NCBI GenBank assembly: GCA_033762625.1
Contig: JANRLI010000005.1
Coordinates: 99,954 to 163,953 of the forward strand
DNA from: Alphaproteobacteria bacterium
Lineage (GTDB): Bacteria; Pseudomonadota; Alphaproteobacteria; UBA9219; RGZA01
DNA: 64,000 nucleotides
Direction of reading: 5' to 3'
Shown here: positions 9,848-62,123 of the stretch, piece by piece
Position numbering within the stretch: the first letter of the stretch is position 1
How the letters are laid out: each line of letters starts with the position of its first letter
Made by a program: the position numbers and the translations under genes
The notes under the pieces: model-generated
What the model was told of the DNA's origin: nothing
What the model saw: the letters and a program-made list of their open reading frames with translations, nothing else
Database searches by the model: none

Positions 9848-9863
9848 TTCTCCGATAGGTACT

Positions 9864-15631: not shown

Positions 15632-15633
15632 AC

Positions 15634-16377: not shown

Positions 16378-16386
16378 GGGACTAAC

Positions 16387-18050: not shown

Positions 18051-18061
18051 TGGAGAAATAA

Positions 18062-23255: not shown

Positions 23256-23843
23256 TTATCCAGCGATGTTTTGCGATACCATGCAATACAGCATTGGCAG
23301 GGACAAAACGAAGTTGGTACGTGAGGCTAGCATCGCGGTGCGGGCAGCCTTTGCTTTTGCTGCATCGTCAACGGTTACGATGCCCAATGCTTTTTGCTGG
23401 TTTGGCCAGATGATAAACCAGACGTTTGCAGCCATAATAAGTGCAAGCCACATGCCGATGCCGATGGTGCGGCTGCCTTCCAGGGTTAGCGCGCTGACGA
23501 GATAACCTTTGATATAGGCAACCAGCAAACCAGTTACAACGGTTGCAAGCGCAGACCAGCGGAACCAGAATAAGGCTTCTGGTGCAATGAATTTGCCAAC
23601 CGCTGGTTTCAGTTCAGCAGGGATTTTCGGCATGGTGGGGATTTGCACAAAGTTGAAGTACCACAGCAAGCCAATCCACAAAATGCCGCATACGACATGC
23701 AGCCACACTGCGACATTGATGTGCAGCGTTACCATTTGTGCGGCGTCATTCATCAGGTTACTGTGCAATCCAAATAATGCTGCAAGGGCCAGCACGACGC
23801 TTAAGCCTAAAGCAGGGTAAAGTTTTTCAAGAATTTTTGTCAT
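23256..23843 (-). CDS. Conserved integral membrane protein of unknown function (HemJ/PuuD-like topology with conserved His/Trp)
   Basis: 195 aa, ~5 TM. Motif HINVAVWLHVVCGILWIGLLWYFNF. Confidence 0.35.
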   Translation of the reverse strand: MTKILEKLYPALGLSVVLALAALFGLHSNLMNDAAQMVTLHINVAVWLHVVCGILWIGLLWYFNFVQIPTMPKIPAELKPAVGKFIAPEALFWFRWSALATVVTGLLVAYIKGYLVSALTLEGSRTIGIGMWLALIMAANVWFIIWPNQQKALGIVTVDDAAKAKAARTAMLASRTNFVLSLPMLYCMVSQNIAG

Positions 23844-23943
23844 GGAAGGAAACCTTCTAAGGGAGGTGGTGGGTGGGGTATAAGAGTATGGGCAAGCCGG
23901 ACTTCGCCGTCAATATGACTAAAAAGCGCATCACGTAATGGGC

Positions 23944-24654
23944 TTAAATAAGGCTTTCAAAATAACTTTTGCGTTCATTAAAATACGACATTAGCGCCGT
24001 GCGTGCATCTTTGGACAGCAGCGATGTGGGCACGAAAATATCTTCTTTCACAACGCGCAGGATTTTTTCATAACCAAGTTGCGCGAGCAGTTCCACAAGA
24101 CCTTCCTGCACGGGCTCGTTTTCACATAATATAACGGGCTGCATGCGGCGCAGTGTTTCAACACCGCCGCGCACGACGTTCAATTCCCAACCCTGCACAT
24201 CCATTTTGATAAAATTAATCTCGGATATCTTAATGCTATCCAGCGTTTTTAAATCGGCGGTGGTGGATGTCGCGCTGCGGTTTTCAAACGTGCCAAATGA
24301 ACCTGCGCCGCTATTGTGCACATCGCCTGGCATGTAAAACGATTTTTGCGTAATGGTATCGGAAAGGCCGAAGGGATAGATAATCGCATTCCTGTCTGCC
24401 AGATTTTTACGCAGACATTCCACATTTTCCTTTCGCGGTTCAAAGCAGATGACTTTTTTGAATACAGTTGAAAGCGGTCGTGCCCATAACCCCACATGTG
24501 CGCCGATATCCAGTGCGCAATTCAGCGGTATATTGATGGCGCGGCAAACGCCCACCCCCATTTCCCGCTGCAAAATTTGGTAATCCCCATGTGCAAGAAA
24601 CGACTGGAAATGCGTTTCATCATCAGGGAAATAATAGCCGTATTCCAATTTCAT
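23944..24654 (-). CDS. FkbM-family SAM methyltransferase
   Basis: ALDIGAHVGLWARPLS ... VICFEP pattern characteristic of FkbM. Confidence 0.65.
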   Translation of the reverse strand: MKLEYGYYFPDDETHFQSFLAHGDYQILQREMGVGVCRAINIPLNCALDIGAHVGLWARPLSTVFKKVICFEPRKENVECLRKNLADRNAIIYPFGLSDTITQKSFYMPGDVHNSGAGSFGTFENRSATSTTADLKTLDSIKISEINFIKMDVQGWELNVVRGGVETLRRMQPVILCENEPVQEGLVELLAQLGYEKILRVVKEDIFVPTSLLSKDARTALMSYFNERKSYFESLI

Positions 24655-24872
24655 TGTGATTCTGGGCGTGTTTTGGCCGGGTTCGCTGCTTTATTAATCA
24701 ATACCATGTTTCTTCGTTATCAGTAGCTTAACAGGGTTGAATGACGAGTATAGTGCATGTGCTGCAATCGCAATAACAGCCTTTTTGTTTTGACTGGAAA
24801 GCTCGGCTAGCCTATAAAAAACCACACTTTGCTTCTAGTGCATGAAGCGCATTTAACATTTATTTATTCTTT

Positions 24873-25724
24873 GTGAGGAAATCAATGAACAAGCTCGAAC
24901 GCCAAATGCTCGACATTCTGAAACAGGGCCGTGATGAATACGGATATCTTGCTGTTAAAGCCGAGTTCGAAGCAGAAGGTACGCGCGTTGAAGAATTGCT
25001 TCGCCTGATTGAAATTGCTCGCAAAGCAAATGTTAAAATCGGTTTGAAAATTGGTGGCTGCGAAGCGATGCGCGATTTGCTGGAATCAAAACAGCTTGGC
25101 GTCGATTACATCATCGCGCCGATGGTTGAAAGCGTTTATGCCTTAAGCAAATTTATTGATTCAAAGAACAAGGTTTATTCGGCAGACGAACAAAAAGACA
25201 CTGACTTCCTGTTCAATCTTGAAACCGAAACGGCTTATGGCCAATTGCAGGGCCTTGCTGATGAAGCACGCAAGCCCGGTGGTTCCAACGGTATTGTGTT
25301 TGGCCGCGTCGATTTCTCCCTCTCCAAGGGATTCTCGCGCGAGGACATCAACGAACAGAAAGTGACCGATTATATTCTTGAAACCGCAAAGGTTTGCAAA
25401 GCCAAGGGCCTTGATCTTGTCGTTGGGGGTGGCGTTTCCATGGATGCTATTTCCGCGCTGCGTCAGGTCAATAAAATCATCCTTACCCGTTTTGAAACCC
25501 GCAAGGTTATTTTTGACGGTAAGGCGATTGAACAAAAAGAAATCGACAGCGGATTGCTGAACGCGGTTCACTTCGAATTGCTATGGCTTCTTAACAAGCG
25601 CGAATATTACGGCGCTATTCAACGTGAAGATGCCAAACGCATCGACATGCTGGAAGCGCGCTGGAAGATTTTGCAGGCCGAAGCAGAAGCGCAAGGCAAG
25701 CCTGCTATCGCCCTTGCATCCTAA
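24873..25724 (+). CDS. TIM-barrel aldolase / citrate-lyase-beta-like protein (HpcH/HpaI-like, tentative)
   Basis: 283 aa. Central motif [12 protein letters not shown] resembles the HpcH/CitE PMVE motif. First gene of a + strand sugar operon. A start at MNKLERQ (24885) is possible. Confidence 0.35.
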
Positions 25725-25733
25725 GCGTGTGCT

Positions 25734-26477
25734 GTGTCAAACAGCGCCACATCATCTGAATTGACCAAAGCCCCGCGGGTGCTGCTGTTTGGCGGCGCAG
25801 GGGCCATTGGCTCTTCGCTTCTTGAAAAATTTCTGGCCGAAGGCTGGCAGGTTATTGCAACCGGCCGACATGCGCCAACTGCGCCTGTTGCTGATGGCGT
25901 GACATGGCTGGAGCTTGACCCGTTTGCTGAAAATTTTGATGGCAGCGCGTTAGATAAGTATGGCCAATTTTCGGCAGTGTGCTGGGCCCAAGGCGCAAAC
26001 ATCAATGATAGCGCCTATGATGTGGATACGCAGCAGCACATGGAATTGTATCGCGCGAATTGTTTGTTTGTGGTGATTACCTTACAAAAATTGCTGAGCC
26101 GTAAACTGCTCTCGGATTCTTCACGTTTGTGCGTCATCAGTTCTATCTGGCAGAATATTGCCCGCCAGAACAAATATTCCTATTGCATCACCAAGGCGGC
26201 TTTGCAGGGGTTAGTGTTATCCGCTGCTGCTGATCTGGCAAGCGATGGCCATTTGATTAATGCGGTATTGCCGGGTGCACTTGATACACCGATGACCCAG
26301 CGGAATTTAAGCCCCGACCAGATCAAGCAACTGGAAACCGCAACCAAATTCAACCGCATGCCGAAGTTAAATGACGTATCGAACCTCGTGTTCCATTTAT
26401 GCTCGCCCAATAACACCGGCATTACCGGCCAATTTATTGCATCGGATTTAGGATATAGCCATGTCCGCATTATCTGA
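25734..26477 (+). CDS. Short-chain dehydrogenase/reductase
   Basis: Rossmann motif LLFGGAGAIGSSL. Catalytic YCITKAAL (YxxxK). Confidence 0.7.
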   Translation: MSNSATSSELTKAPRVLLFGGAGAIGSSLLEKFLAEGWQVIATGRHAPTAPVADGVTWLELDPFAENFDGSALDKYGQFSAVCWAQGANINDSAYDVDTQQHMELYRANCLFVVITLQKLLSRKLLSDSSRLCVISSIWQNIARQNKYSYCITKAALQGLVLSAAADLASDGHLINAVLPGALDTPMTQRNLSPDQIKQLETATKFNRMPKLNDVSNLVFHLCSPNNTGITGQFIASDLGYSHVRII

Positions 26478-26632
26478 GTCTATTTATAATTCAGACTGCG
26501 GCGTTAGCTTTTTGGCGTTTTTTCCGCTTCCGGTGCTCACGTACTTAAACGTACGCTGCGCTCCGGTTCTCAAAAACCACCAAAAATCCTTAGCCGCAGC
26601 AAAATTCTAAACAGACTCATCTGAGAACCACC

Positions 26633-27733
26633 ATGCAGCAAAAATTCTCTATCTCATCATCAACAGGCAACTATGATGTTGAAGTTGCTTCCGGGCTTTA
26701 CCAGCAATTCATGGCGCAGGGCCAGAATCTTATTGCCATCTGCGATGAACGCTTTGCCGCAGATTTTGAAAAGGCAGGCGTAAAGGCGATTGCATTGAGG
26801 TCGGAAGAAACCGTTAAAAGCCTTGATGCCATTCCCGCCATCATCACGCAGTTGCGCAAATTGGGCACCACGCGCGATACCTTATTACTGGCGGTAGGCG
26901 GCGGTATTGTTCAGGATGTTTCCGCGTTTTGCGCAGCGATTTATATGCGGGGTTTAGACTGGATCTATATGCCAACGACCTTGCTTGGCATGGCCGATAG
27001 CTGCATTGGCGGTAAATCATCCATCAATGTCGGTGAATATAAAAATATTGTTGGCACATTTAACCCGCCGCGCCGTGTATTAATTGATCCAGCTTTCACT
27101 GCAACATTAAACGCCGAACAAATCGCTGCTGGCATGATTGAGGCGGCAAAAATCTGTTATTGCCGCGGGCTGGATAGCTGGAATGCGTATATGGCAACCA
27201 CACCATCCGCCACGATGGGTGAGGGCGGGTTTGCGCGCGTTATCGCAACATCCCTTGCTGCCAAGAAATGGTTCATCGAAACCGATGAGTTTGATAAGGG
27301 CGAACGGTTATTGCTTAATTTCGGCCACACCTTTGGCCATGCGTTGGAAGGTGCATCGCATTACCGCGTCAGCCACGGGATTGCAGTGGGCGTGGGGATG
27401 CTATGCGCGCTGGCGCTCGAAGAACGCATGGGTGCAAATTACGCATCGCAGCCGCATGTTGCGGTGATGCGCCAGCATGTTGAAGAATTGTTGGCGCTGG
27501 TAACGGATTTGCCTGCTGCATTGGAAGGCGTAACTGCGCCTGATCTTTTCGACCGTTTTTCATCCGATAAAAAGCATAAGGTTGATGGTTATCGCGTCGT
27601 CGTGGTTGCTGCAGATGGCCGCGCCCAATTAAAGACCTTGCCAAAAAATGATGAAAGCCGCACACATCTCACGGCCGCGATGGAACACGTTCTGACATCG
27701 CTTCGCAAAAAAACCAACCGCGCTGCTGCGTAA
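26633..27733 (+). CDS. 3-dehydroquinate-synthase-family enzyme (sugar-phosphate cyclase superfamily) embedded in the glycan locus
   Basis: GGGIVQDVSAFCAAIYMRGLDWIYMPTTLLGMADSCIGGKSSIN and LNFGHTFGHALE closely follow the DHQS NAD/metal motifs. Confidence 0.75.
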   Translation: MQQKFSISSSTGNYDVEVASGLYQQFMAQGQNLIAICDERFAADFEKAGVKAIALRSEETVKSLDAIPAIITQLRKLGTTRDTLLLAVGGGIVQDVSAFCAAIYMRGLDWIYMPTTLLGMADSCIGGKSSINVGEYKNIVGTFNPPRRVLIDPAFTATLNAEQIAAGMIEAAKICYCRGLDSWNAYMATTPSATMGEGGFARVIATSLAAKKWFIETDEFDKGERLLLNFGHTFGHALEGASHYRVSHGIAVGVGMLCALALEERMGANYASQPHVAVMRQHVEELLALVTDLPAALEGVTAPDLFDRFSSDKKHKVDGYRVVVVAADGRAQLKTLPKNDESRTHLTAAMEHVLTSLRKKTNRAAA

Positions 27734-27751
27734 CTTCCGATAGGACCCCAT

Positions 27752-29524
27752 ATGAAATACAGTGATTTATTGGCTGATTGGCTTGTTGAAGCTGGCTATA
27801 CCACCTGCTTTTTTCTGGCGGGCGGAAACATCATGCACATTCTGGAATCATGCAGCCGCAAGATGAAGATGGTGCCGGTGGTGCATGAAGTGGCGGCGGG
27901 AATTGCGGTTGAGTATTTCAATGAATCCCAAAGAGGGGAAACCAAAAAAAGCGAACGCGCCTTTGCGCTGGTCACCGCTGGGCCAGGCCTTACCAATATT
28001 ATCACCGCCATGGGCGGCGCATATCTTGAATCGCGCGAATTGCTGGTGATTGGTGGGCAGGTAAAAACGGCAGATTTGGCGCGCGGTAAACTGCGCCAGA
28101 ACGGTATTCAGGAAATCGACGGCGTTGCGCTGGCAAAACCGGTTTGTGTGCTATCTACATTAATGGATGATGTTGTTGCGCAGGATAAATTTACCGACAT
28201 GGCAAAAGCGGGTAGCAGCGGCCGCAAGGGGCCGGTGTTTATCGAATTACCGCTGGATATTCAGGCGCGTAATGTTGATGAAAAAACATTAAACAAACCA
28301 ACCACGTCCAAAGCCACATCATTTAATCCGATTGCAAAGGGTGATCTGGAAAAACTGGCAGCGCGCATTAAAGATGCCAAACGTCCTGTATTATTACTGG
28401 GCGGCGGAATCGACCGCGATGTTGCGGCAAGCATCCATTTCGAAAAACTGGGAATTCCCGTGACCACCACATGGAATGGCGCTGACCGTGTGCCGGCGGA
28501 TATGCCAAATTATTTTGGCCGTCCGAACACATGGGGCATGCGTTATTCGAATTTGGTAATGCAGCAAGCGGATGTGCTGGTTGCATTGGGCACACGCCTT
28601 GGCATGCAACAAACCGGATTTAACTGGCAGGAATTTGTGCCCGTTGGAAAAGTCATTCAGGTGGAATGCGATAAAGCCGAATTGGAAAAAGGGCATCCGG
28701 TGGTTGATTGGCCGATTTGCGGCGATGCGAATGAGGTTTTGAAATTTTTAAGCAGCGCAAACCTTGGCGAACATAAAGAATGGATTGACCATTGCCGTTT
28801 AATCAAAAAAGAACTCCCCATGGTGGAGGAAGGCAATACAACAGGTGAAGGATTTATCTCGCCATACCATTTTGTCAGCAAGCTTTCTGCCCTGTGCGAA
28901 AAAGGCGATGTGATTATTCCATGCAGCTCTGGCAGCGCTTTTACCAGCATGATGCAGGTATTTGAATTAAAGCAAGGCCAGCGAATGGTCACCAATAAGG
29001 GCCTCGCATCGATGGGGTATGGGCTTTCCGGCGCGATTGGCGCAGCCATGGCGGCAAATGGCCAACGCACGATTTTGGTGGAAGGTGATGGCGGCTTTTC
29101 GCAAAACATTCAGGAAATCGGCACGGCTGCTGCCAACAAGCTAAACCTCAAAATCTTTATCTATGATGATAATGGTTATGCATCTATTCGTATGACGCAG
29201 AGCAATTATTTTGGTGGCCGCTATGTGGGCTGTGATGGCGCAACGGGTTTGGGTTTGCCACACTGGGCAAAATTATTCTCGGCGTGGGATGTGCCAACAA
29301 TGAATTTAAAACCCGGTTTTGAAAACGATGCCGCGTTCAAAAAAGCCTTTGCTGAAAAAGGTCCGGCTGCTTTTATCGTTCCGGTTGACCCCAAGCAGAC
29401 CTATTTCCCCAAAATTACCAGCCGCGTTACTGAAAGCGGCGGCATGGTATCGAATCCCTTGCACCGGATGTCGCCAGACCTTCCTGAGGCGCAGTATGCC
29501 AGACTTGCCAAATACCTTGCTTAA
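27752..29524 (+). CDS. Thiamine-diphosphate-dependent enzyme of the acetolactate-synthase large-subunit family (YerE-like candidate)
   Basis: 590 aa. N-terminal Pyr domain (TAGPGLTNIITAMGGAY). ThDP-binding motif EGDGGFSQNIQEIGTAA ... YDDNGY. Confidence 0.8.
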   Translation: MKYSDLLADWLVEAGYTTCFFLAGGNIMHILESCSRKMKMVPVVHEVAAGIAVEYFNESQRGETKKSERAFALVTAGPGLTNIITAMGGAYLESRELLVIGGQVKTADLARGKLRQNGIQEIDGVALAKPVCVLSTLMDDVVAQDKFTDMAKAGSSGRKGPVFIELPLDIQARNVDEKTLNKPTTSKATSFNPIAKGDLEKLAARIKDAKRPVLLLGGGIDRDVAASIHFEKLGIPVTTTWNGADRVPADMPNYFGRPNTWGMRYSNLVMQQADVLVALGTRLGMQQTGFNWQEFVPVGKVIQVECDKAELEKGHPVVDWPICGDANEVLKFLSSANLGEHKEWIDHCRLIKKELPMVEEGNTTGEGFISPYHFVSKLSALCEKGDVIIPCSSGSAFTSMMQVFELKQGQRMVTNKGLASMGYGLSGAIGAAMAANGQRTILVEGDGGFSQNIQEIGTAAANKLNLKIFIYDDNGYASIRMTQSNYFGGRYVGCDGATGLGLPHWAKLFSAWDVPTMNLKPGFENDAAFKKAFAEKGPAAFIVPVDPKQTYFPKITSRVTESGGMVSNPLHRMSPDLPEAQYARLAKYLA

Positions 29525-29634
29525 CGCTGGTTTTTAAGGGGCAAAAAGCGCTAAGCGGTGTTTGCCAGCCAGCCTAAATAATGCTATCAAAGCCCCACAA
29601 AAAAGATGGGTAACCGGACGAGCGAGGCAAGGCC

Positions 29635-30480
29635 ATGGAAAGCAAACACAAGGGCATAAAAGCAGTGATTTTGGCGGGCGGCAAAGGTACGCGCCTTTCC
29701 GAAGAAACTGTGTCATTGCCAAAGCCACTGGTTGAAGTTGGCGGTCGCCCCATCCTTTGGCACATCATGAAAATTTATGCCGCGCATGGCATTCGTGATT
29801 TCGTGATTTGCCTTGGCTATAAAGGGTTCAAGATTAAAGAATATTTTTTGAATTATGGCTTGCACAATGTGGACATCAGCGTCGATACGCGTGGTGGCGG
29901 CGTGCAGCTTCATCAAGAATCCCAAGAAGACTGGCATATCACACTTGCTGAAACCGGCGAAGAAACCCAAACCGGTGGCCGTGTGCGCCGTGTACGTCGT
30001 TATCTGGATGATACTCAGCCCTTCTGTTTGACCTATGGTGATGGTGTGGGCGATGTGGATATTTCCAAGAGCATTGAGTTTCATAAGCAACATGGCAAGC
30101 TCGCAACAGTTACCGCTGTGCAACCGCTGGCGCGTTTTGGTTCGCTCGACATTCAGCCCAATGGTTCGGTCAAACAATTCGTTGAAAAACCTGTTACCGA
30201 AAGCGGCCTTATTAATGGCGGGTTCTTTGTATTAAACCCCAAGGTGATTGATTATATCTCCGGCGATGACATGCCGTGGGAACGTGACCCGCTCGAAAAC
30301 ATTGCAAAAGATGGGCAGTTGATGGCGTTTGAACATCACGGATTCTGGCAGCCCATGGATACACTGCGCGACCGCAATCATCTGGATGCGATGTGGGAAA
30401 AAAATAAAGCGCCATGGAAAATCTGGAGCGATGAAAAGCCAAAAGAAATCGCCAATGGTGGCAAGAGGCGTTTTGCATGA
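29635..30480 (+). CDS. rfbF: Glucose-1-phosphate cytidylyltransferase
   Basis: KAVILAGGKGTRLSEETVSLPKPLVEVGGRPILWHIMKIYAAHGIRDFVICLGYKG is near-identical in pattern to RfbF/DdhA. Confidence 0.9.
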   Translation: MESKHKGIKAVILAGGKGTRLSEETVSLPKPLVEVGGRPILWHIMKIYAAHGIRDFVICLGYKGFKIKEYFLNYGLHNVDISVDTRGGGVQLHQESQEDWHITLAETGEETQTGGRVRRVRRYLDDTQPFCLTYGDGVGDVDISKSIEFHKQHGKLATVTAVQPLARFGSLDIQPNGSVKQFVEKPVTESGLINGGFFVLNPKVIDYISGDDMPWERDPLENIAKDGQLMAFEHHGFWQPMDTLRDRNHLDAMWEKNKAPWKIWSDEKPKEIANGGKRRFA

Positions 30481-31601
30481 GCGGTGTAAATCCACACAAG
30501 GATTTTTGGCGCGGCAAGCGCGTATTCCTGACAGGGCATACGGGGTTTAAGGGTGGCTGGCTTGCGCTGTGGCTAAAGCAATTGGGCGCAGTGGTGCATG
30601 GGTTTTCGCTGCAACCACCTACCGTTCCAAATCTCTTTACGCTTGCCAATGTGGAAGGCGCGGTTAGTCATCAGATCGGCGATATCCGTGATGGCGAAAC
30701 ATTAAAAAGCGCAGTAAAGAATTTTAAGCCGGATATCGTGTTGCATTTGGCAGCGCAGCCGATTTTGCGTTTATCTTATGACGAACCCGTTGAAACCTAT
30801 GCAACCAACGTCATGGGTACTGTGCACATGCTGGAAGCGGTGCGCGCGGCGCCATCGGTGCAGGTGACGCTCGTTATCACGACCGATAAATGCTATGAAA
30901 ACCGCGAGCAAATCTGGCCCTATCGTGAAGGCGATGCGATGGGCGGCCATGACCCCTATAGCAGCAGCAAAGGATGCGCAGAACTTGTGGTCTCATCCTA
31001 TGGCCATTCCTATTTCAACAAAGGTGAGCAGGTCATTGCATCTGCCCGCGCCGGCAATGTGATTGGCGGTGGCGATTGGGCACGCGATCGATTGATGACG
31101 GATATCATTGCCGCTGTTGCGCGCGGCCAAAAACCAGTCATTCGTAACCCCGGTGCAATCCGCCCATGGCAACATGTGCTGGAGCCGCTTTCGGGTTATT
31201 TACGCGCTGTAGAAGTGTTGTGGGAGCGTCGCCCGAAAAACGGAGCTGAAGCATGGAATTTTGGGCCGGAATCTGAAAGCGAAGTTTGCGTTGGCGATGT
31301 GGCCAATACGGTTTGTGAATTATGGGGCTTTAAGGCCGGACTTGAAATCACCCCGGATGCCCGCCGTTTGCATGAAGCAACCCTGCTGCGTCTCGATAGC
31401 AGCAAGGCCCGGGTTGAACTAGGCTGGAAGCCACGCCTTACCTTGCATGATGCATTAGCCATGACCGTTGAATGGTATAAGGCGCAGCAGGCAAGCGCGA
31501 ATATGAACACGGTTACCCTTGCCCAAATTCAGGCCTATCACGACAAGATTTCAACTAATGCTGCTGGGCAAGCCCGCCCATTGGCAACCGCTTCTGTTTA
31601 A
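30477..31601 (+). CDS. rfbG: CDP-glucose 4,6-dehydratase
   Basis: GKRVFLTGHTGFKGGWLALWL. Catalytic YSSSKGCAEL. Start overlaps the rfbF stop. Confidence 0.9.
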   Translation: MSGVNPHKDFWRGKRVFLTGHTGFKGGWLALWLKQLGAVVHGFSLQPPTVPNLFTLANVEGAVSHQIGDIRDGETLKSAVKNFKPDIVLHLAAQPILRLSYDEPVETYATNVMGTVHMLEAVRAAPSVQVTLVITTDKCYENREQIWPYREGDAMGGHDPYSSSKGCAELVVSSYGHSYFNKGEQVIASARAGNVIGGGDWARDRLMTDIIAAVARGQKPVIRNPGAIRPWQHVLEPLSGYLRAVEVLWERRPKNGAEAWNFGPESESEVCVGDVANTVCELWGFKAGLEITPDARRLHEATLLRLDSSKARVELGWKPRLTLHDALAMTVEWYKAQQASANMNTVTLAQIQAYHDKISTNAAGQARPLATASV

Positions 31602-31619
31602 ACACTTTAGGAAAAATAA

Positions 31620-32990
31620 ATGAGTACTGCTGCTGCTAAAAAACATGTCTCCCCGCAATTCTCGAATGAAACCAGCGAAGCTGAAGCCCTGCGTACGCAG
31701 ATTTTGGAGCTAACCAAGAGATATGCAGAACTTGCGCATGCGCCAAAACCATTTACTGCTGGTAAATCACCCGTGCCTGTTTCGGGCCGCGTATATGGCG
31801 CCAATGAAATGACCACGCTGGTGGATAGCGCATTGGAATTCTGGCTCACCACGGGTCGTTACAACGACATGTTCGAAGAACGCTTTGGAAAAATTCTGGG
31901 CGTGAATGCAGTTTTAACCTGCAATTCCGGTTCTTCAGCTAACCTTTTGGCTGCAACCGCGCTCACCTCTCATTTGCTTGGCGCGAAGGCATTAAAGCCA
32001 GGCGATGAAGTGATTACCTGCTCAACCGGTTTTCCAACCACCATCAATCCGCTCATCCAAAACGGATTAGTGCCGGTATTTATTGATGTCGATATTCCAA
32101 CCTACAACATTCGCGCCGAACAGATTGAAGCCGCAATAACACCAAAGACCCGCGCCATTATGGTTGCGCATGCCTTGGGTAATCCGTTTGATTTGGATAC
32201 CGTGATGGCGGTAGCCAAGAAACATAATTTATATGTTGTCGAAGATAGCTGCGATGCGTTGGGCGCGACCTATAATGGCAAGATGGTTGGCACGTTTGGC
32301 GATATTGGTACGGTAAGCTTTTATCCTGCACATCATATCACCATGGGTGAGGGCGGTGCGGTTTATACCAACAGCGCAGTGATGAAGCGCATTCTGGAAT
32401 CGGTGCGTGACTGGGGCCGTGATTGCTGGTGCAAGCCGGGCATGGACAATACCTGCAAGAAGCGCTTCGGCTGGCAGTTGGGTGATTTGCCATTTGGCTA
32501 TGACCACAAATATACCTATTCACATATTGGTTATAATTTAAAGATTACCGATATGCAGGCAGCCGTTGGTTATGCCCAGCTTGACCGTCTGGATGATTTT
32601 GTTGCCAAGCGCCGCGCGAACTTCACCTATCTGAAAGCAGGGTTGAAGCAATTTGAAGATGTGCTGATTTTGCCGGAGGCAACGCCGAAATCCGATCCGT
32701 CATGGTTTGGCTTCCCGCTATCGATGCGGGATGGCGCGAAGTTCAAGCGCGATGAATTGCTGGTTTATTTGAATGAAAAGAAAATTGGCACGCGGTTGCT
32801 GTTCGGCGGAAATTTATTACGCCAGCCTTACATGAAAGACCGCCCATACCGTGTTCATGGCGAAACGCCAAATAGCGATAAGGTGATGCGCGATACCTTC
32901 TGGCTGGGCGTTTACCCCGGTATCGGGAATGCCGAAAACGATTATATCGTGGATATGATCGGCGCATTTATCAAAAACGGCGGTAAGTAA
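31620..32990 (+). CDS. rfbH: CDP-4-keto-6-deoxy-D-glucose 3-dehydrase (E1; RfbH/DdhC), a DegT-family PMP enzyme
   Basis: 456 aa. RfbH length and layout. DegT-family fold. Follows rfbF-rfbG. Confidence 0.8.
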
Positions 32991-34012
32991 TGTCCAGCGT
33001 TGCGGGAAGACTGGAATTCCCGACAGCGCTGGCTGAAGTATTACGGGCAAGCCCATGTGATATCGTCATTACTGGTGGCGGCGGGTGGATAGGGCAGGCA
33101 GCGCTTGAAATGTTGGAAAGCGCGCTGGGCGATGATGTATTGAAACGAGTTTCGGTGTTTGGTTCATCTGCGCGTGATTTAACGCTGCGTTCCGGTCGTA
33201 CTATTCCTTGTTTAGCGCTGGAGCATATTCGTGTGCTGGAAGCAGGTCCAAAGCTGTTTTTCCATTGCGCATTCTTGACCAAAGACCGTTTGCTGGGTCA
33301 AAGCGTTGATGCATTCATCGCCGGCAACACGGTGATTAGTGATTGCGTTGCAGCAGCCATTGAACGCAGCGATGCGCGTGGCATCTTTATGCCATCATCC
33401 GGCGCTGTGTATAAGCGCGACCGCTCTGTTCCGCCAAGTGGCGGAACAACCGCGACTACGCGAGAGCTTGATGACGATATGCAGGCTAATCCCTATGGGG
33501 TGATGAAGCATCAGGATGAAGAGCGGTTTTTGCAAATTGCCAAGCAAAAAAACATACCGGCATGTATTCCGCGCCTGTTTAATTTATCTGGCCCGTTCAT
33601 CAATAAAATCGAACTCTATGCACTGGCATCGATGATTGCATCGTGCATGGGCGGAAAGGAAATTACCATCCACGCGCCACACCGTGTTTTTCGTTCATAT
33701 ATTCATGTGGCTGATTTGGTGGCGCTGGGGTTTGCCATGCTGCTCAACTCCAAAAAAGACGATGTGCCTGTGTTTGATACAGCCGGCGAAGAAGTAGTGG
33801 AACTGACCGCGCTTGCCGAAAAAATCCGCGAGGTAATGGGCAAGCCCCAAACGCCAATTTGCCGCCCTCATATCATCACCGATAAAGATGATGTGTATGT
33901 AGGGAATAGCAAGCCGTTTAACCAGATGATGGACCATCACGGATTGACATTACGCAGCATTGATGTGCAAATTCGGGACACCGCCGCCTATCTTGCTAGC
34001 TTAATCAAATGA
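32990..34012 (+). CDS. NAD(P)-dependent sugar epimerase/reductase (extended SDR)
   Basis: CDIVITGGGGWIGQAALEML Rossmann motif. TAATG-coupled to rfbH. Confidence 0.65.
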   Translation: MSSVAGRLEFPTALAEVLRASPCDIVITGGGGWIGQAALEMLESALGDDVLKRVSVFGSSARDLTLRSGRTIPCLALEHIRVLEAGPKLFFHCAFLTKDRLLGQSVDAFIAGNTVISDCVAAAIERSDARGIFMPSSGAVYKRDRSVPPSGGTTATTRELDDDMQANPYGVMKHQDEERFLQIAKQKNIPACIPRLFNLSGPFINKIELYALASMIASCMGGKEITIHAPHRVFRSYIHVADLVALGFAMLLNSKKDDVPVFDTAGEEVVELTALAEKIREVMGKPQTPICRPHIITDKDDVYVGNSKPFNQMMDHHGLTLRSIDVQIRDTAAYLASLIK

Positions 34013-35055
34013 CACCCCAGCTTCCTGACGAACACCAGATTTATCCAGCGGCTTCGAATCCTTTTTATATCGTTGCGCCGCCTTATGTGCGCATATCGGC
34101 GGGTGTTCGCGTGCTGCATTTGCTGTGTCACAGTTTGAATAAGTTGGGTCATACGGCATATTTGCTCATGTACCCTGCGATGCCGTGGCGCGAGCACCAA
34201 ATCTGCCCAGATTTGATGACGCCTGTTTTGAATCACGATATCGTCAAAAGTCATTTTGACCGCGGCCTTACCCCTATCATGGTCTATCCGGAAACGGTAA
34301 CTGGAAATCCATTTAACAGCCCATGCGTTGTGCGGTATGTACTCAATTTCCCGGGATTGCTGGGCGGTGATAAAATATATGCCGAAAATGAATTATGTTT
34401 CAGCTATGGCGAAGTGCTGGCATCGCATACACGCAACCCTACGAATATTTTATTTTTACCAGCGATTGACACGCGTACTTATCACCCGCCTGCGGCGGGA
34501 CAAAAACGCAGCGGCACCTGCTTTTATGCGGATAAATATCAGGTAGCGCATCAAGGCAAGCTATTTGACATTACCAAGGACAGCATCGAAATCACACGAA
34601 ATAAGCCTGATAGCCAAACACCACAGCAAATCGCCGAACTATTCCGCAAAAGCGAATTATTTTACGTGTATGAAAACACCGCGCTGGCAATTGAAGCGGT
34701 GTTGTGCGGTTGCCCGGTTGTGTTTTTACCCAATGAACATCTTAGTGATATGATCGCTGTCAAGGAAATCGGCAAGGATGGGTATGCGTGGGGCGCTGAT
34801 CCTGCTGAAGTTGCCAGAGCAAAGGCAACGGTTGAGCAAGGTGCGCAGAATTATTTAAACAGTTATAAAACCTATTGGGAAGATCTGGATAAATTCATCC
34901 AGCAGTCTAAAGCGCATGTTGCAGGCAAGCCTTATACTACCATGATCACCCTGCCAAATACCTTTGATGTGATACGACAGTCTTATTATGACCGTGGTCC
35001 AGCCCGTTTCTTCCAATTGGTATTACGCCGCCTGCGAGAACTTTTAAAAATATAA
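34009..35055 (+). CDS. Hypothetical protein, possible unclassified glycosyltransferase
   Basis: 348 aa. No recognised motif. ATGA-coupled to the upstream reductase. Confidence 0.35.
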   Translation: MTPQLPDEHQIYPAASNPFYIVAPPYVRISAGVRVLHLLCHSLNKLGHTAYLLMYPAMPWREHQICPDLMTPVLNHDIVKSHFDRGLTPIMVYPETVTGNPFNSPCVVRYVLNFPGLLGGDKIYAENELCFSYGEVLASHTRNPTNILFLPAIDTRTYHPPAAGQKRSGTCFYADKYQVAHQGKLFDITKDSIEITRNKPDSQTPQQIAELFRKSELFYVYENTALAIEAVLCGCPVVFLPNEHLSDMIAVKEIGKDGYAWGADPAEVARAKATVEQGAQNYLNSYKTYWEDLDKFIQQSKAHVAGKPYTTMITLPNTFDVIRQSYYDRGPARFFQLVLRRLRELLKI

Positions 35056-35146
35056 TGGTTTCAGTGACGGTGAAACGATGCTTATCCACAAGCTAATTAA
35101 TAAAATAAAGCCTAAATCAACCCCAAACCCTCATCGCTAATAAGGA

Positions 35147-36214
35147 TTGCACTTACCGCCATATCCTTTAAAAAGAGGGGCTATTCCTCATTTAAATGGC
35201 TTAGATTTCTGTATGACACGCATCTCCGTCTGCACGCCCTGTTTCAATGAACGCGAAAGCATCCGCCGCTGCTATGAGACAGTGCGCAAGGTTTTCGAAG
35301 AAACCATGCCGGATGTCGAGCGCGAACATATTTTTGCGGATAATGGTTCAACCGATGGCACCGTAGAAATTCTGCGCGAAATTGCCGCCAATGATCCATG
35401 CGTCAAAGTCATTCTGAATATGCGCAATTTCGGAATCATTCGCAGTTCCATGAACGGTATTCTTAGCTCGTCAGGCGATGCCGTATTCATGTTCATGCCA
35501 GCCGATTTGCAGGACCCGCCAGAACTGATGCCGCAATTTGTGAAATTGTGGCGTGAAGGGTATGAAGTCGTATATGGCACCCGCGAAATTCGTGAAGAGC
35601 ACCCGCTTATGCGTAGCGTTCGCGAGATGTATTACAAAGTTTTGCGTGCATTTTCCAGTGTCCAGCTGCCAATGAATATCAGTGATTACCAATTGCTGGA
35701 TAAGCGTGTGATTGATGCGATGCGCCAGTTTGATGATGCGTATCCGTTCGTGCGTGCCATGCCGTTTCAATGCACATCGCGTACTATTGCTGTGCCCTAT
35801 ACATGGCGCGCCCGCGCAGCCGGTGTTTCGAAAAACCGCCTTTTTAATCTGATTGATCAAGGGCTAAACGGTTTTATTGCAACAACCCATGTTCCTATTC
35901 GCTTGGCGTTACTGGCAGGCTTTCTAATTTCCGCATGCAGCATTTTGTATGCGGTAGTGAATGTGGTTGGCAGTTTGTTTGCGCCAGAACCGATGGTGGG
36001 CGCGGGTATTCGTACGTTGATTGCAGGTATGTTTTTGTTCAATGGTATAATTTTATTCTTCTTGGGTGTTTTGGGCGAATATGTACTTTCCATTCACCAG
36101 CAAGTGCGCCGCCCGCCGCGCGTCGTTGAACGGGAGCGGATCAATTTCGATACCCCGCCGCGCACCCAGCAAAGTAGTGAAGAAACCGAACAGAAACAAC
36201 GGCGCGCCAGCTAA
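35147..36214 (+). CDS. GT2 polyprenyl-phosphate glycosyltransferase (GtrB/ArnC/DPM1-like) with a C-terminal 2-TM anchor
   Basis: ISVCTPCFNERESI, FADNGSTDGT and DLQDPP GT2 motifs. C-terminal TM pair ...AGMFLFNGIILFFLGVLGEY. An alternative start at 35213 is possible. Confidence 0.8.
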   Translation: MHLPPYPLKRGAIPHLNGLDFCMTRISVCTPCFNERESIRRCYETVRKVFEETMPDVEREHIFADNGSTDGTVEILREIAANDPCVKVILNMRNFGIIRSSMNGILSSSGDAVFMFMPADLQDPPELMPQFVKLWREGYEVVYGTREIREEHPLMRSVREMYYKVLRAFSSVQLPMNISDYQLLDKRVIDAMRQFDDAYPFVRAMPFQCTSRTIAVPYTWRARAAGVSKNRLFNLIDQGLNGFIATTHVPIRLALLAGFLISACSILYAVVNVVGSLFAPEPMVGAGIRTLIAGMFLFNGIILFFLGVLGEYVLSIHQQVRRPPRVVERERINFDTPPRTQQSSEETEQKQRRAS

Positions 36215-36215
36215 G

Positions 36216-36983: not shown

Positions 36984-37005
36984 AAATGCGTAAGGGCTGC
37001 ACGTT

Positions 37006-37881
37006 TTGCATGCAGTGCCGTTAAAAAATCCCGTTTTCTATTATTTTTCCGCTGTTTTGCTTGTAGTTTTGCTAGGCAATTCATACAAAGAAAAATATAC
37101 TTACCGGCTTCTTGGCATCACCGTGATGCTTTTTCCCCTAATGGATGCGCGCTGCTTTATGAAATTCGAAGATTATTCCCATACGTTTTTGCATTTTCAT
37201 ACAACAGAAGTGCCAGCGATATTAAAAAAATACCTTTCGGGCAATGTTGGGCTCGTGGATTTGGGGGCGGGCGATGGCAACTTGCTTATATCCCTAAAAA
37301 CCGCAGGCCTGCTGGATCAGTTTTCCAAAGTTGTTGCCGTTGAACTATCCCAAGAACGCTGCGAGCGGCTTCGCACCTATACCAATTTCAAAGTCATCTG
37401 CGGGGATGCCACCAATGTCAGCGAGCTGGAACCAGAAAGCTTTGATTTTGTTTTATGCACGCAGGTGATCGAACACGTGGATGAAGCCAAACTGCTTGCG
37501 CAAATTTCAAAGCTATTAAAGCCGAATGGTACCGCCTATATCGCATCGCTGATTAAAGAAAAGCATGGCTGGTGGTATTATCGTACGGCGGATGGCAAAT
37601 GGGCATTAGACCCCACCCATTTGCGCGAATATGAATCAGTCGAGCAATATGAAGCAGTGATTAAAAAGGGCGGATTTACCATTGTAGAAACAGTAACCAG
37701 CCGTTTGGAACTTTCAATCATTGAGTTTGTGCTGCGTAGAATTGTCGTTCCGCTGTTCAAGCCGGAGCATATTCACAGCTTCTTTATTCAATATCCATTT
37801 GCAGACTGGATACGCAGGCATTTTAACGTGCGCCCGCCCGGTTACCATATTGTTGAAACCATCGCGAAAAAAGCACAATGA
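37006..37881 (+). CDS. Class I SAM methyltransferase
   Basis: VDLGAGDGNLLISL motif I. The true start may be a downstream internal Met. Confidence 0.6.
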   Translation: MHAVPLKNPVFYYFSAVLLVVLLGNSYKEKYTYRLLGITVMLFPLMDARCFMKFEDYSHTFLHFHTTEVPAILKKYLSGNVGLVDLGAGDGNLLISLKTAGLLDQFSKVVAVELSQERCERLRTYTNFKVICGDATNVSELEPESFDFVLCTQVIEHVDEAKLLAQISKLLKPNGTAYIASLIKEKHGWWYYRTADGKWALDPTHLREYESVEQYEAVIKKGGFTIVETVTSRLELSIIEFVLRRIVVPLFKPEHIHSFFIQYPFADWIRRHFNVRPPGYHIVETIAKKAQ

Positions 37882-38300
37882 ATTTGATAGCATTAAAAGA
37901 AAAAGTGGTAATGCGGTATGCGATGATCGGTGTTGTTAACACTGTGTTCGGGTTCAGTTTTTTCCCTTTTTTCTATTGGCTGTTCCATTCCATTCTGGAA
38001 ATCAATATTCTGGTTACATTAAGCCATTTGTGTTGCGCGTTATTTGCATTTTTTTCTCATAAATATCTGACCTTTCGTTCTGACGAAAAGGTGCATCTGG
38101 AAGGCGGAAAGTTTATCGTAACGCAGGCAATTACATGGACCATCAATATTGCTATGTTGAATGTGGCTATGGCGTTACTTGATTGGAGCCCGTTTGTCCT
38201 GCAAATGCTGATTTCGGTTTTTTTGACGATTAGTAATTATTTTGTTTACAAGTACTTTGTTTTTCTGTCGCCAAAAGGCAAGCCGCGCGAACAGCATTAA
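37878..38300 (+). CDS. gtrA: GtrA-family small membrane protein (polyprenyl-P-sugar flippase family)
   Basis: 140 aa, 4 TM. MRYAMIGVVNTVFGFSFF ... YKYFVF GtrA signature. Confidence 0.75.
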   Translation: MNLIALKEKVVMRYAMIGVVNTVFGFSFFPFFYWLFHSILEINILVTLSHLCCALFAFFSHKYLTFRSDEKVHLEGGKFIVTQAITWTINIAMLNVAMALLDWSPFVLQMLISVFLTISNYFVYKYFVFLSPKGKPREQH

Positions 38301-38330
38301 TCTATTCCACCCCAACCTGAGAATTTCTGA

Positions 38331-40688
38331 ATGTTATCTAGGTTATTTCAAACACTGGCAACCACAGCGGTTTCCAAACTAAGCAAAGCTTATCTGTGGG
38401 TTGGCAGTGCATTCAAGAAACATACCCGATTGTCTGCGGATGATTTAAGCATTGTCGGCGCTTATTGCGCAGCCATGGGCTTGGCAAGCTGGTCTATTTT
38501 CCGTTGGCTGTCGTTTGTTGCAGCGGATATTTCCTTTGAGTGGAATAGCGGTGTTGGCCCCACGCAGATCATCTTTAATACCACATTAATTACTTATGCA
38601 ATTTTGGTGTGTTCGGTAATCGGTCTCGTTGCGTTGCTATGGGTATGCGAAGCGTTACCTTTCATGCGCCGTTTACTGGTACGGCTTGCCAACGCCTGCT
38701 CGGTGCTGCTGTTGCTGTGTTCATGTGCGGCGGTATTTATTACATCTTTGGTAATCGCGCGGATTTATTTTATTATTACATTCCTGGTTTTTGTGCCGCA
38801 TGCGGTGTGCTTCTTTAAAAGTCAGACTGTGATTATGATGAAAAATCATTCCAGTGGCTTTATTCGATATGCCATGCCGTTAGTGTTATTTGTGCCGCTC
38901 GCTCTGGCATTCGCACTTGCCATCAAAGCGTGGTTTCCGGTGCAAATTCCGAATGATTATATTGAAGTAGCCGATACGGTGGTGTTGCATGGAAAGGATA
39001 ATGTGCAAACAAAGACCATTAGCCGCTCCGATGCTGTGGATTGCATGGAGGCGGCCAAGTACCCAGATAGCAATTCAAAATCGAATGGTTCACAACTAAA
39101 GCCGCAGATAAAAAAATCTGCCAAGGATGATGCCAGCATTCCCAGATGCCGTTTTGATATATCGTCAACCCAGTTACAGAAGCTATATGAACCTGTTCTT
39201 AAAACGGGTACATGGCAAGCGCAGGCAGGGCGTTTATTATATCATCACTCGTACGTATTTGTTCCTGCTATTCATGCGCTTCACTATGGGTTGGCGTCAC
39301 CCATTCCTTATCTTTACGGTCTTGGCAACACGTTGTTTCATGCCGCATTGCTGCATCTGACATCGCCTACCCTGACCAGCTATTTTGACACTTACCCGAT
39401 TGCGCAATTGACGGGCATTTTGTGTATTATGTTATTGATTTCGTATATCTCGCGTAACAGCTATGCGGCCGTGGCCGGGTTAAGCGTTGTACTCGTTGCC
39501 TTGTTTCAGTTGAAGTTTGAATTTGTGTTATTGCCACCTGGCTTTAGCCCGCTGCGCTATGCGGGGTTGGCACTGCAAGTTGCATCGATTTTTCTTTTAT
39601 TCCGAGGGACCTCGCTTTTACGCCCGTTTGGCATGATGCTGGCGCTTGCAGCCTCATTTTTCTGGAATGCAGAATATGCGATGATTGGCGCTGTTGGGCA
39701 GGGCATGGCATTGGTATCGCCGCAATACCGAATATCCGCATGGGGGCGTTTTGGCTTTCTGGGCTTGGCAGCATTGATCGCTGTTGGCGGCATGGTTGGA
39801 AATGGCTGGTATTCTACAGGTTACTTGCAGGGAATGGCGTTGGGGCTGTTTGGCCTTTTCCCGATGTTACCGACGAACTATTTCCTGGTGCTTTGCGCGC
39901 TGGTTGCTACGGGAATTGGGTTGCTTATATATGCGACAAAGCAATTTACGGCTAGTGAAGCGATGGCCCGCCTATGCGTGTTGCCTATTATGGCGTTATT
40001 GGTTGTTAAGTTCCTTTTCTATGCATTGGCCGTACATCTTTTCTATAGCATGATGTTTATAGTGCCGCTCGTACTGACATATATTGATTGGTCGAACCGT
40101 CGTCATTCATCGGTGACTGTTAACCGCCGCTGGATGGAGGCATCATTTGCGGCTAGTTTCGCGTTGCTGGCCTTTATTAACTCCATTACCTATTATTCAA
40201 GCGCACTTAAGTTCCGTGAAATCATGTCGGATCCATTTGGCACTTATCAGTGGTCAGGAATTGGCGAGCACTTTAACACCAATATTCCCCCTGAACCGAT
40301 TGTTAGCCGCGTTGAAGCGGTGCGCTCACAATTGCGTGCGGGGGATAGAGTGTTGTTCCTGTCGCCGTTTGATCATCTGCTATCCTTTTATACCAATCCC
40401 CAGCATTACTGCGGACATTTTGAAATCGTGTTAAACCCAATAACAACAAAAATGGTGCGGTCACTTGTGGACTGTGCGCGTGATTCCACGCAGCTGTTAA
40501 TAGTATATGACGAGGCGGAAAGATACGCATGTCCTGATGGATGGCGCGCGCAGTATTATGATAGGCCTTCATGCGAGTATAAACGAAATCTCAAGCAAAA
40601 CGCGCTGACCATATTACGCGCGCTGGGTGATGATATTGTTCCGGTCACAAAAATCGGGCCGCTTACTTTTTACCGAAAAAACCATTAA
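38331..40688 (+). CDS. Large polytopic membrane protein (>=12 TM) with a C-terminal soluble domain; candidate GT-C glycosyltransferase
   Basis: 785 aa. Hydrophobic throughout with a ~170 aa hydrophilic C-terminus. Sits immediately after gtrA. Confidence 0.45.
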   Translation: MLSRLFQTLATTAVSKLSKAYLWVGSAFKKHTRLSADDLSIVGAYCAAMGLASWSIFRWLSFVAADISFEWNSGVGPTQIIFNTTLITYAILVCSVIGLVALLWVCEALPFMRRLLVRLANACSVLLLLCSCAAVFITSLVIARIYFIITFLVFVPHAVCFFKSQTVIMMKNHSSGFIRYAMPLVLFVPLALAFALAIKAWFPVQIPNDYIEVADTVVLHGKDNVQTKTISRSDAVDCMEAAKYPDSNSKSNGSQLKPQIKKSAKDDASIPRCRFDISSTQLQKLYEPVLKTGTWQAQAGRLLYHHSYVFVPAIHALHYGLASPIPYLYGLGNTLFHAALLHLTSPTLTSYFDTYPIAQLTGILCIMLLISYISRNSYAAVAGLSVVLVALFQLKFEFVLLPPGFSPLRYAGLALQVASIFLLFRGTSLLRPFGMMLALAASFFWNAEYAMIGAVGQGMALVSPQYRISAWGRFGFLGLAALIAVGGMVGNGWYSTGYLQGMALGLFGLFPMLPTNYFLVLCALVATGIGLLIYATKQFTASEAMARLCVLPIMALLVVKFLFYALAVHLFYSMMFIVPLVLTYIDWSNRRHSSVTVNRRWMEASFAASFALLAFINSITYYSSALKFREIMSDPFGTYQWSGIGEHFNTNIPPEPIVSRVEAVRSQLRAGDRVLFLSPFDHLLSFYTNPQHYCGHFEIVLNPITTKMVRSLVDCARDSTQLLIVYDEAERYACPDGWRAQYYDRPSCEYKRNLKQNALTILRALGDDIVPVTKIGPLTFYRKNH

Positions 40689-62121: not shown

Positions 62122-62123
62122 GG

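Follow-up and report, generated by a model that had tools for sequence, protein, structure and literature searches.

Branched sugars of the caryophyllose type, with twelve carbons, are known from only a few bacteria (Mycobacterium marinum, Burkholderia/Trinickia caryophylli and Rhodopseudomonas palustris), where they shape the immune recognition of the cell surface. A unifying scheme has been published for erwiniose, caryophyllose and gastriose, in which a 2-keto acid made by an aldolase is coupled by a thiamine diphosphate (ThDP)-dependent enzyme to CDP-4-keto-3,6-dideoxyglucose, and the adduct is then reduced by a YerF-like enzyme (PMC9306805). The YerE-like enzymes tested from aldolase-containing clusters (ErwE, MMAR_2332 and MyGE) use long gamma-hydroxy 2-keto acids rather than pyruvate, and those for MMAR_2332 and ErwE are made by aldolases (Steitz et al., PMC9306805), so that an HpcH-type aldolase encoded beside a ThDP enzyme already has a published and partly tested role, the supply of long functionalised 2-keto acid donors. 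The same scheme gives no origin for the aldehyde partner of the aldolase (PMC9306805). Here we analyse a locus of this kind in a 64,000-nucleotide stretch of DNA from an Alphaproteobacteria bacterium (assembly GCA_033762625.1, contig JANRLI010000005.1, positions 99,954 to 163,953; hereafter the window), in which the genes of the CDP-3,6-dideoxyhexose pathway follow genes for an aldolase-like protein, a short-chain dehydrogenase/reductase (SDR), a member of the dehydroquinate synthase (DHQS) superfamily and a ThDP enzyme.

The lipooligosaccharide (LOS) locus of M. marinum offers a described counterpart. Its RefSeq names include a “3-dehydroquinate synthase family protein” (MMAR_2329), an aldolase/citrate lyase family protein (MMAR_2331), a ThDP-binding protein (MMAR_2332), a family 2 glycosyltransferase (GT2, MMAR_2333), RfbF (MMAR_2334), RfbH (MMAR_2335) and RfbG, the CDP-glucose 4,6-dehydratase (MMAR_2336; all from the supplement of PMC12395582). 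Mutants in MMAR_2331, 2332 and 2333 accumulate LOS-II* without caryophyllose (PMC5706390; PMC9306805), a sugar whose branch is a 1,3,4,5-tetrahydroxyhexyl group (PMC5706390). The window holds this whole set of families (DHQS, aldolase, ThDP, GT2, RfbF, RfbG and RfbH), a correspondence at the level of annotation except for two peptides of the aldolase. We think it probable that the operon makes a CDP-activated caryophyllose-type C12 sugar, that is, a 3,6-dideoxyhexose with a long polyhydroxyalkyl branch at C4.

The two aldolase peptides come from the primers used for quantitative PCR of MMAR_2331 (PMC12395582), which encode VHFELL and RWKVLN and match residues 232-237 (6/6) and 263-268 (4/6) of the aldolase-like protein of the window, here called A. 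Both matches stand in the right order, 31 residues apart, and the family consensus at the second site reads RW.VLN. Moreover, an aldolase 70% identical to A lies in the same cassette of Trinickia acidisoli, a member of the genus to which the type organism of caryophyllose, Burkholderia caryophylli, is now assigned. Among the papers searched, none names caryophyllose together with dehydroquinate synthase.

Open reading frames of the window of at least 150 amino acids were scanned with Pfam, and curated NCBIfam cut-offs were applied to the proteins of the cassette, which we designate by letters (Table 1). Nine closely packed genes on the + strand, A to I, occupy positions 24873-35055, and their intergenic spacing, from -4 to +155 bp, fits a single operon. 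The widest gap, 155 bp at 26478-26632, separates B from C, two genes that overlap by about 17 bp in most relatives. A promoter and terminator scan of positions 23800-38400 returned fewer promoter-like sites than shuffled sequences and an average number of terminators.

Table 1. Genes of the branched-sugar cassette and its immediate flanks, in window positions, with the evidence for each assignment.
Feature	Position	Strand	Evidence or remark
FkbM-type methyltransferase	23944..24654	-	Pfam PF05050, 59.8 bits; divergent from operon start
A, aldolase-like phosphoenolpyruvate (PEP)/pyruvate-binding TIM barrel	24873..25724	+	PF03328, 20.5 bits; AlphaFold2 (AF2) fold
B, classical SDR	25734..26477	+	PF13561/PF00106
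C, DHQS-superfamily enzyme	26633..27733	+	PF01761 and PF24621
D, YerE-like ThDP-dependent carboligase	27752..29524	+	three ThDP domains; solved relatives
E, glucose-1-phosphate cytidylyltransferase (RfbF/DdhA)	29635..30480	+	TIGR02623
F, CDP-glucose 4,6-dehydratase (RfbG/DdhB)	30477..31601	+	TIGR02622
G, CDP-4-keto-6-deoxyglucose 3-dehydrase E1 (RfbH/DdhC)	31620..32990	+	NF011936
H, extended-SDR NAD(P)-dependent reductase	32990..34012	+	PF01370, 70 bits
I, orphan family, GT-B fold	34009..35055	+	AF2 and Foldseek
J, GT2 of PgfS/ArnC/GtrB type	35147..36214	+	PF00535; NCBIfam PgfS and ArnC-type
M, GtrA-family small membrane protein	37878..38300	+	PF04138, 49 bits
N, 785-aa polytopic membrane protein	38331..40688	+	at least 9 hydrophobic segments
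Second polytopic protein, 537 aa	40707-42320		after N

An earlier reading of the letters alone (the sequence-only reading) had called rfbF, rfbG and rfbH unambiguous, placed ThDP, DHQS-superfamily, SDR and HpcH-like genes upstream and an NAD-dependent reductase downstream, and noted that no E3 (ddhD) lies in the locus. All of its genes were recovered where it had placed them, on the + strand, and these assignments agree with the profile searches, with a weak match for the HpcH-like gene and the epimerase/dehydratase fold of PF01370 for the reductase. The three rfb products pass their curated cut-offs by wide margins: 402 bits against 300 for RfbF (TIGR02623), 474 against 278 for RfbG (TIGR02622) and 731 against 423 for RfbH (NF011936). 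RfbH also gives a full-length alignment (656 bits) with the crystallised E1 dehydrase of Yersinia pseudotuberculosis (3bcx/3bb8). In both enzymes His-His stands in place of the Schiff-base lysine, and the C-X-C-X7-C iron-sulfur motif of the Yersinia enzyme is retained and aligns as well. These identities, together with the established chemistry of the families, would carry glucose-1-phosphate to CDP-4-keto-3,6-dideoxy-D-glucose.

Because the E1 carries this iron-sulfur motif, it needs electrons. Yersinia encodes the E3 reductase (ddhD) within its cluster, and the cassette of the window differs: no Fer2/FNR-type E3 appears among its scanned open reading frames, and a motif scan for a ferredoxin plus ferredoxin-NADP+ reductase (FNR) found no E3-like frame in the window or in 168 related loci. 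As far as these sequences go, the lack of an E3 is typical of the cassette. The spinosyn enzyme SpnQ reportedly draws its electrons from a general ferredoxin or flavodoxin reductase system, and by analogy such a system is the likely electron source of the E1 in the window.

The ThDP enzyme, D, falls well below every acetolactate synthase model (best TIGR00118, 245 bits against a cut-off of 538). Its best solved relatives are 8rph (279 bits), which is JanthE, a YerE-like enzyme (PMC12188165), then PpYerE of Pseudomonas protegens (5ahk, 203 bits) and acetohydroxyacid synthase (AHAS) I of Escherichia coli (187 bits), so that D is nearer to the YerE-like enzymes than to AHAS, by a modest margin. 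Homologues number in the thousands at 62-65% identity and are spread across phyla, and exact-sequence look-ups of D and of the database protein identical to A (P0121) returned no record. By family, D is thus a YerE-like carboligase, and by analogy with the enzymes of M. marinum and Pectobacterium it would use a long keto acid and a keto sugar.

As for the three proteins encoded ahead of D, the AF2 model of A (pLDDT 90) matches in Foldseek the HpcH/HpaI aldolases, SbnG and malyl-CoA lyase and, about equally, the barrel of pyruvate kinase; its family profile found no solved relative among the sequences of the Protein Data Bank (PDB). Protein P0121, which is 100% identical, is annotated “aldolase” and has 279 aa, wherefore the probable true start of A is the ATG at 24885 (279 aa); most A homologues carry a precomputed PF03328 match. 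On this modelled fold, A is predicted to be a class II pyruvate aldolase-like TIM barrel of the PEP/pyruvate-binding superfamily. Protein B has the YxxxK and glycine-rich motifs of its family and only generic SDR matches in NCBIfam. Protein C scores 247 bits against a cut-off of 305 with aroB (TIGR01357) and 282 against 400 with TIGR04425, and by these scores it is a member of the DHQS superfamily but not an AroB equivalog. Aligned with four solved DHQS, it keeps the motifs with the metal-, phosphate- and C1-carboxylate-binding residues, invariant in its family, which we take to be the equivalents of R130, D146, K152, N162, E194, K197, K250, R264, N268, H271, H275, H287 and K356 in Aspergillus nidulans numbering. 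Since C keeps the motifs that bind 3-deoxy-D-arabino-heptulosonate 7-phosphate (DAHP), its substrate should be a 3-deoxy-2-ulosonate phosphate.

The distribution of these genes tells much about their connection. A pattern scan for the DHQS-like family over 185,579 species genomes gave 409 relatives of C in species-level genomes, the nearest of which, among the matches listed, are uncultured Rhodospirillales and alphaproteobacterial metagenome-assembled genomes (MAGs) with 87-88% identity. The cassette also occurs in more than 560 metagenome contigs. Its carriers belong to the Acidobacteria, the Alpha-, Beta- and Gammaproteobacteria and the Actinobacteriota, with soil Acidobacteriaceae, Sphingomonas, Caulobacter and uncultured Alphaproteobacteria particularly frequent among them. 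Cultured carriers include Terriglobus saanensis, T. roseus DSM 18391, Granulicella rosea, Thiobacillus denitrificans ATCC 25259, Trinickia acidisoli and Caulobacter vibrioides T5M6. For synteny we used 46 loci from species-level genomes in which the DHQS-like gene is flanked by 8 kb or more on either side. The SDR gene adjoins the DHQS-like gene in all 46, and the order aldolase-SDR-DHQS holds in 43. Within 10 kb there is a ThDP gene in 45 loci and a J-like GT2 in 30, and 42 loci have a reductase, which is H or, in Acidobacteria, another extended SDR. At least one of rfbF, rfbG and rfbH accompanies 31 of the 46 loci, and all three accompany 22; it is this linkage, together with the published relatives, that points to CDP-4-keto-3,6-dideoxyglucose as the acceptor on which D would act. 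The complete run of aldolase, SDR, DHQS, ThDP and reductase genes is found in an alphaproteobacterial MAG, Terriglobus saanensis, GCA_030012885.1 and a Solirubrobacterales MAG, and genes A to D overlap or nearly abut in relatives across phyla. The A-B-C-D arrangement is far beyond chance.

This conservation bears on two simpler accounts of the locus. D and C are indeed members of the superfamilies of acetolactate synthase and DHQ synthase, respectively, and could then be a housekeeping IlvB and AroB that came to lie beside an O-antigen cluster by accident; we give this next to no credence, as both fall below the equivalog cut-offs, the scanned frames of the window include no ilvN, ilvC or other aro gene, and the same arrangement in hundreds of genomes refutes it. 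In a second account the product would be plain yersiniose, with D using pyruvate as YerE does, H acting as YerF, and A, B and C merely linked. The YerE-like nature of D agrees with it, and JanthE and MyGE accept pyruvate in vitro. However, A to D form one block across phyla, M. marinum no longer makes its branched sugar when only the aldolase is lost (PMC5706390), and ErwE, from an aldolase-containing cluster, rejects pyruvate (PMC9306805), so that we hold this account to be very improbable.

The expectations of the sequence-only reading can be revisited here. It had named chance housekeeping genes as the case that would overturn it, and had preferred a YerE-type enzyme to IlvB; the sub-cut-off scores, the lack of ilvN and ilvC in the scanned frames, the cross-phylum block and the higher scores of JanthE and PpYerE over AHAS I bear out its preference. 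Its suggestion of a more elaborate, longer C-branched sugar gains from the conservation of the cassette and from the M. marinum families. Of its yersiniose-type interpretation, the union of a CDP-3,6-dideoxyhexose arm with a YerE-type carboligase holds good, whereas the product now expected is a caryophyllose-type C12 sugar and not yersiniose. Finally, its statement that the extra DHQS-like and aldolase-like genes have no role in known dideoxyhexose pathways makes the locus seem newer than it is: a role of the aldolase is published (PMC9306805), and MMAR_2329 sits in the caryophyllose locus.

A different, unbiased sample, centred on the aldolase, reveals an alternative to B and C. Among 25 metagenome loci with enough flank, 15 carry B, C and D, seven carry a HAD phosphatase and D without B or C, two carry D only and one B and C only. 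HAD phosphatase and B+C occur together in none of these 25 loci, and none of the 46 DHQS-centred loci has a HAD gene adjacent to the aldolase. The HAD genes in this position come from two different subfamilies (at 8792-9487 in locus L123 and 6009-6908 in L006, and also in L099, L118, L127, L130, L133 and L147). This mutual exclusion suggests that the pathway requires the removal of a phosphate, for which hydrolysis and B+C would be two solutions.

In the pathway that we favour, A would join pyruvate to a phosphorylated aldehyde, of which D-erythrose 4-phosphate is the simplest choice, to form a DAHP-like 3-deoxyheptulosonate 7-phosphate. C would then carry out only the first half of the DHQS reaction, in which NAD+ oxidises C5, phosphate leaves by beta-elimination and re-reduction follows, and would release 3,7-dideoxy-hept-2,6-diulosonate without ring closure. 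This diketo acid is known as a stable metabolite on which the type II dehydroquinate synthase of archaea acts, and its release is for this reason chemically reasonable. Reduction of the C6 ketone by B would give 4,5,6-trihydroxy-2-oxoheptanoate, the donor for a 1,3,4,5-tetrahydroxyhexyl branch; D would decarboxylate this keto acid and add the C6 acyl unit to the C4 ketone of the CDP sugar, and H would reduce the new C1' ketone in the manner of YerF. The 2'-CH2 of the branch would thus derive from the methyl of pyruvate, and its terminal CH3 from the elimination of phosphate followed by reduction of the 6-ketone. Going by the published names, the 4',5' D-erythro configuration of caryophyllose fits an origin from erythrose 4-phosphate, and a 3' configuration opposite to C4 of DAHP, read from the same nomenclature, would explain why a dedicated aldolase is present instead of borrowed DAHP. 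In HAD-type loci the branch is predicted to end in CH2OH, as a hydroxylated variant, and we propose that the branch ends in CH3 or CH2OH according to whether a locus has B+C or a HAD phosphatase. We hypothesise that C is the first non-cyclizing phosphate lyase of the DHQS superfamily.

The same end product could be reached if C and B acted before A. Oxidation of a tetrose 4-phosphate at C2, elimination of phosphate, re-reduction and reduction of the 3-ketone would then give a 4-deoxytetrose (2,3-dihydroxybutanal), which A would join to pyruvate. The aldolases of M. marinum and R. palustris have been proposed to condense pyruvate with a free aldehyde, compound 28 (PMC9306805). In general, known HpcH-family aldolases use unphosphorylated aldehydes. 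That B+C and HAD exclude each other is just as compatible with this order. The carboxylate-binding motifs for DAHP kept by C (the K250 and R264 equivalents), with its pyranose and metal set, point mildly the other way, to a 3-deoxy-2-ulosonate and not a four-carbon aldose as substrate, and so, weakly, does the phosphatase gene that follows the aldolase gene in HAD-type loci. We see this order of steps as unlikely, though less so than the other alternatives.

A more distant alternative would make C a genuine cyclase, so that A, B and C build a dehydroquinate- or quinate-like carbocycle, either within the sugar (caryose- or bradyrhizose-like) or as a separate substituent. All the catalytic and binding motifs of DHQS are kept in C, the nearest NCBIfam model, TIGR04425, is named cyclizing phospholyase, and carbocyclic sugars exist in related bacteria, caryose and bradyrhizose being examples. 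If C did close a ring, the cassette would represent a widespread route to carbocyclic bacterial sugars of this kind. However, ring closure consumes the 2-keto group needed by the ThDP enzyme, and the characterised relatives of D use 2-keto acids; the M. marinum locus, with the same annotated families, gives acyclic caryophyllose; and the replacement of B and C by a HAD phosphatase would make no sense on a cyclase route. Moreover, the bradyrhizose cluster of photosynthetic Bradyrhizobium consists of 11 genes around a dTDP-glucose dehydratase, with none of the cassette families mentioned, and no Bradyrhizobium is found among the 80 genome matches listed of the 409. Ring closure by C seems to us very improbable.

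Against the open-chain pathway with A acting first, and against a caryophyllose-type product, several observations must be weighed together. No sugar product is on record for this organism or any close relative. Only the aldolase has a sequence-level link to M. marinum; the peptides encoded by the MMAR_2329 primers showed no convincing match to C. The Pfam match of A lies below the threshold of 25 bits, and its aldehyde partner is one that we infer, while C retains every catalytic residue of a true dehydroquinate synthase and its sequence is compatible with ring closure. Searches for H among solved structures gave weak matches and no close characterised relative, and its YerF-like role is deduced from its position. 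Without a local E3, turnover of the E1 depends on a reductase encoded outside the locus. Finally, the cassette is not uniform, since the ThDP enzyme of loci of the Sphingomonas and Rhizobium type is only about 32-34% identical to D.

In those loci (L019, L020, L022, L026, L027, L044, L060, L080 and L083) the A-B-C order is kept, the ThDP gene is placed after the GT2 and reductase genes, and RfbH is often not found nearby; they may use a different acceptor or donor. In GCA_041917755.1 (locus L002), an abortive-infection gene (Abi_2, 9042-9986) is inserted between the DHQS-like and ThDP genes, and the Logan contig L001, otherwise near-identical, does not have it. In loci with an A-B-C-H-I layout (L081 and L088) the seeming lack of a ThDP gene was an artefact of the 10 kb flank; the same layout in L169 has a ThDP gene, 59% identical to D, after wzm/wzt.

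Downstream of H, the last gene of the putative operon encodes a protein, I, for which no sequence match was found in Pfam, NCBIfam or the PDB, profile search included. Its 518 homologues are all named “hypothetical”, one of them being Tbd_1883 of Thiobacillus denitrificans, and a protein identical to Tbd_1883 is encoded on the contig of L169. The AF2 model (pLDDT 89) gave GT-B structures for all of its top 50 Foldseek matches in the PDB (best E 5e-8, TM about 0.45-0.49). With this predicted GT-B glycosyltransferase fold, and a gene that comes after H in proteobacterial loci, I is a candidate transferase for the CDP-activated branched sugar, which it would use directly.

Alternatively or additionally, J, the GtrA-family protein M and N would use polyprenyl phosphate to carry the sugar to an acceptor in the periplasm, probably lipopolysaccharide (LPS). 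J reaches 176 bits with the PgfS model and 116 with the ArnC-type model of NCBIfam, both below the cut-offs. A GtrA gene after a GT2 gene is also found in Terriglobus saanensis, and a homologue of N, a protein with no Pfam family, follows the GT2 gene in locus L015; N would be a candidate periplasmic GT-C-like transferase completing a trio of the GtrA/GtrB/GtrC type. Genes for the ABC transporter Wzm/Wzt occur in the clusters of L001/L002, L088 and L169.

The surroundings of the cassette are rich in glycan genes. Between J and M lie genes for an SDR and a methyltransferase, all in the direction of the operon, as are the genes of both polytopic proteins after M, and more sugar-modifying genes run downstream to about 50.5 kb. 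Positions 42324-50498 hold genes for a WbqC-family protein, a GT2, methyltransferases, a hexapeptide acyltransferase, an unassigned 303-aa protein, a DegT aminotransferase and a 636-aa membrane protein with an internal DCC1-like thiol-disulfide oxidoreductase domain. Upstream of the cassette come the divergent FkbM methyltransferase gene and then a biotin operon. An FkbM gene (PF05050) has the same position in the related loci L001/L002, and a methyltransferase dependent on S-adenosylmethionine also belongs to the proposed R. palustris cluster (PMC9306805); the enzyme of the window may be a tailoring enzyme for O-methylation, with an uncertain membership in the system. Farther upstream, beyond this operon, a second and separate group of sugar genes (14531-18607), small in size, encodes a DegT aminotransferase, two methyltransferase-like proteins, an unassigned 375-aa protein and an RmlC-like dTDP-sugar isomerase/epimerase. 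The genes rpoN, lptB, lptA and lptC lie on the - strand at the end of the window (59775-63779), so that the glycan clusters lie in a part of the chromosome related to LPS.

Since the cassette was found in no fewer than 409 species-level genomes and over 560 metagenome contigs, long-branched dideoxyhexoses are probably common and unrecognised components of bacterial surfaces. The role proposed for B and C would fill the donor-making step that the published scheme leaves open and predicts a new, non-cyclizing activity in the DHQS superfamily. YerE-family ThDP enzymes are sought as biocatalysts for chiral tertiary alcohols, for which their natural donors would be of help.

Compared with the described systems, the window shares with the yersiniose A pathway of Y. 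pseudotuberculosis (DdhA-D, YerE and YerF) the CDP-4-keto-3,6-dideoxyglucose acceptor arm and the logic of a ThDP carboligase that attacks the C4 ketone, followed by a reductase (PMC9306805); YerE uses pyruvate for a two-carbon branch, and its pathway has no aldolase, DHQS-like gene or small SDR. The erwiniose cluster of Pectobacterium atrosepticum (ErwE, ErwF, ErwI and ErwJ) follows the same logic as the window, with an aldolase-made gamma-hydroxy 2-keto acid coupled by a YerE-like enzyme (PMC9306805), although its aldolase is of the BphI type, paired with an acetaldehyde dehydrogenase for a C4 branch, whereas that of the window is HpcH-like and stands with a DHQS-like protein and an SDR. With AroB and the sugar phosphate cyclases (DOIS, EEVS and DDGS), C shares the fold, the NAD+ and metal active-site motifs and the DAHP-binding residues; unlike AroB, it scores below the equivalog level, is embedded in a glycan cluster beside an SDR and an aldolase, and would have an open-chain product. 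The transfer genes resemble the GtrA/GtrB/GtrC and ArnC/ArnT systems in having a GT2 of the PgfS/ArnC type, GtrA and a large polytopic protein in a row, and differ from them in a donor that would be a CDP-activated C12 sugar and in a large membrane protein without a recognisable family.

The M. marinum LOS locus, to which the window is tied by its set of families, also has a WbqC-family gene nearby (MMAR_2325), as the window does, and a PhyH-family gene (MMAR_2314), as do L001/L002 after their GT2 gene; J and N find parallels by annotated family in the GT2 MMAR_2333 and the GT87 MMAR_2327. The gene order differs, running in M. marinum from DHQS through MMAR_2330, aldolase, ThDP and GT2 to the rfb genes, and so does the acceptor, an acyltrehalose lipooligosaccharide there and probably LPS in the Gram-negative alphaproteobacterial host of the window, which has in addition the GT-B protein I, GtrA and the large membrane protein. 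In our view the locus joins the acyl-branched 3,6-dideoxyhexose clusters of the caryophyllose type, a family already known, and does not stand for an unprecedented class of sugar; what it adds to that family is the breadth of the distribution of the cassette, the alternation of B+C with HAD phosphatases, the hypothesis of a non-cyclizing DHQS-like lyase and the predicted fold of I.

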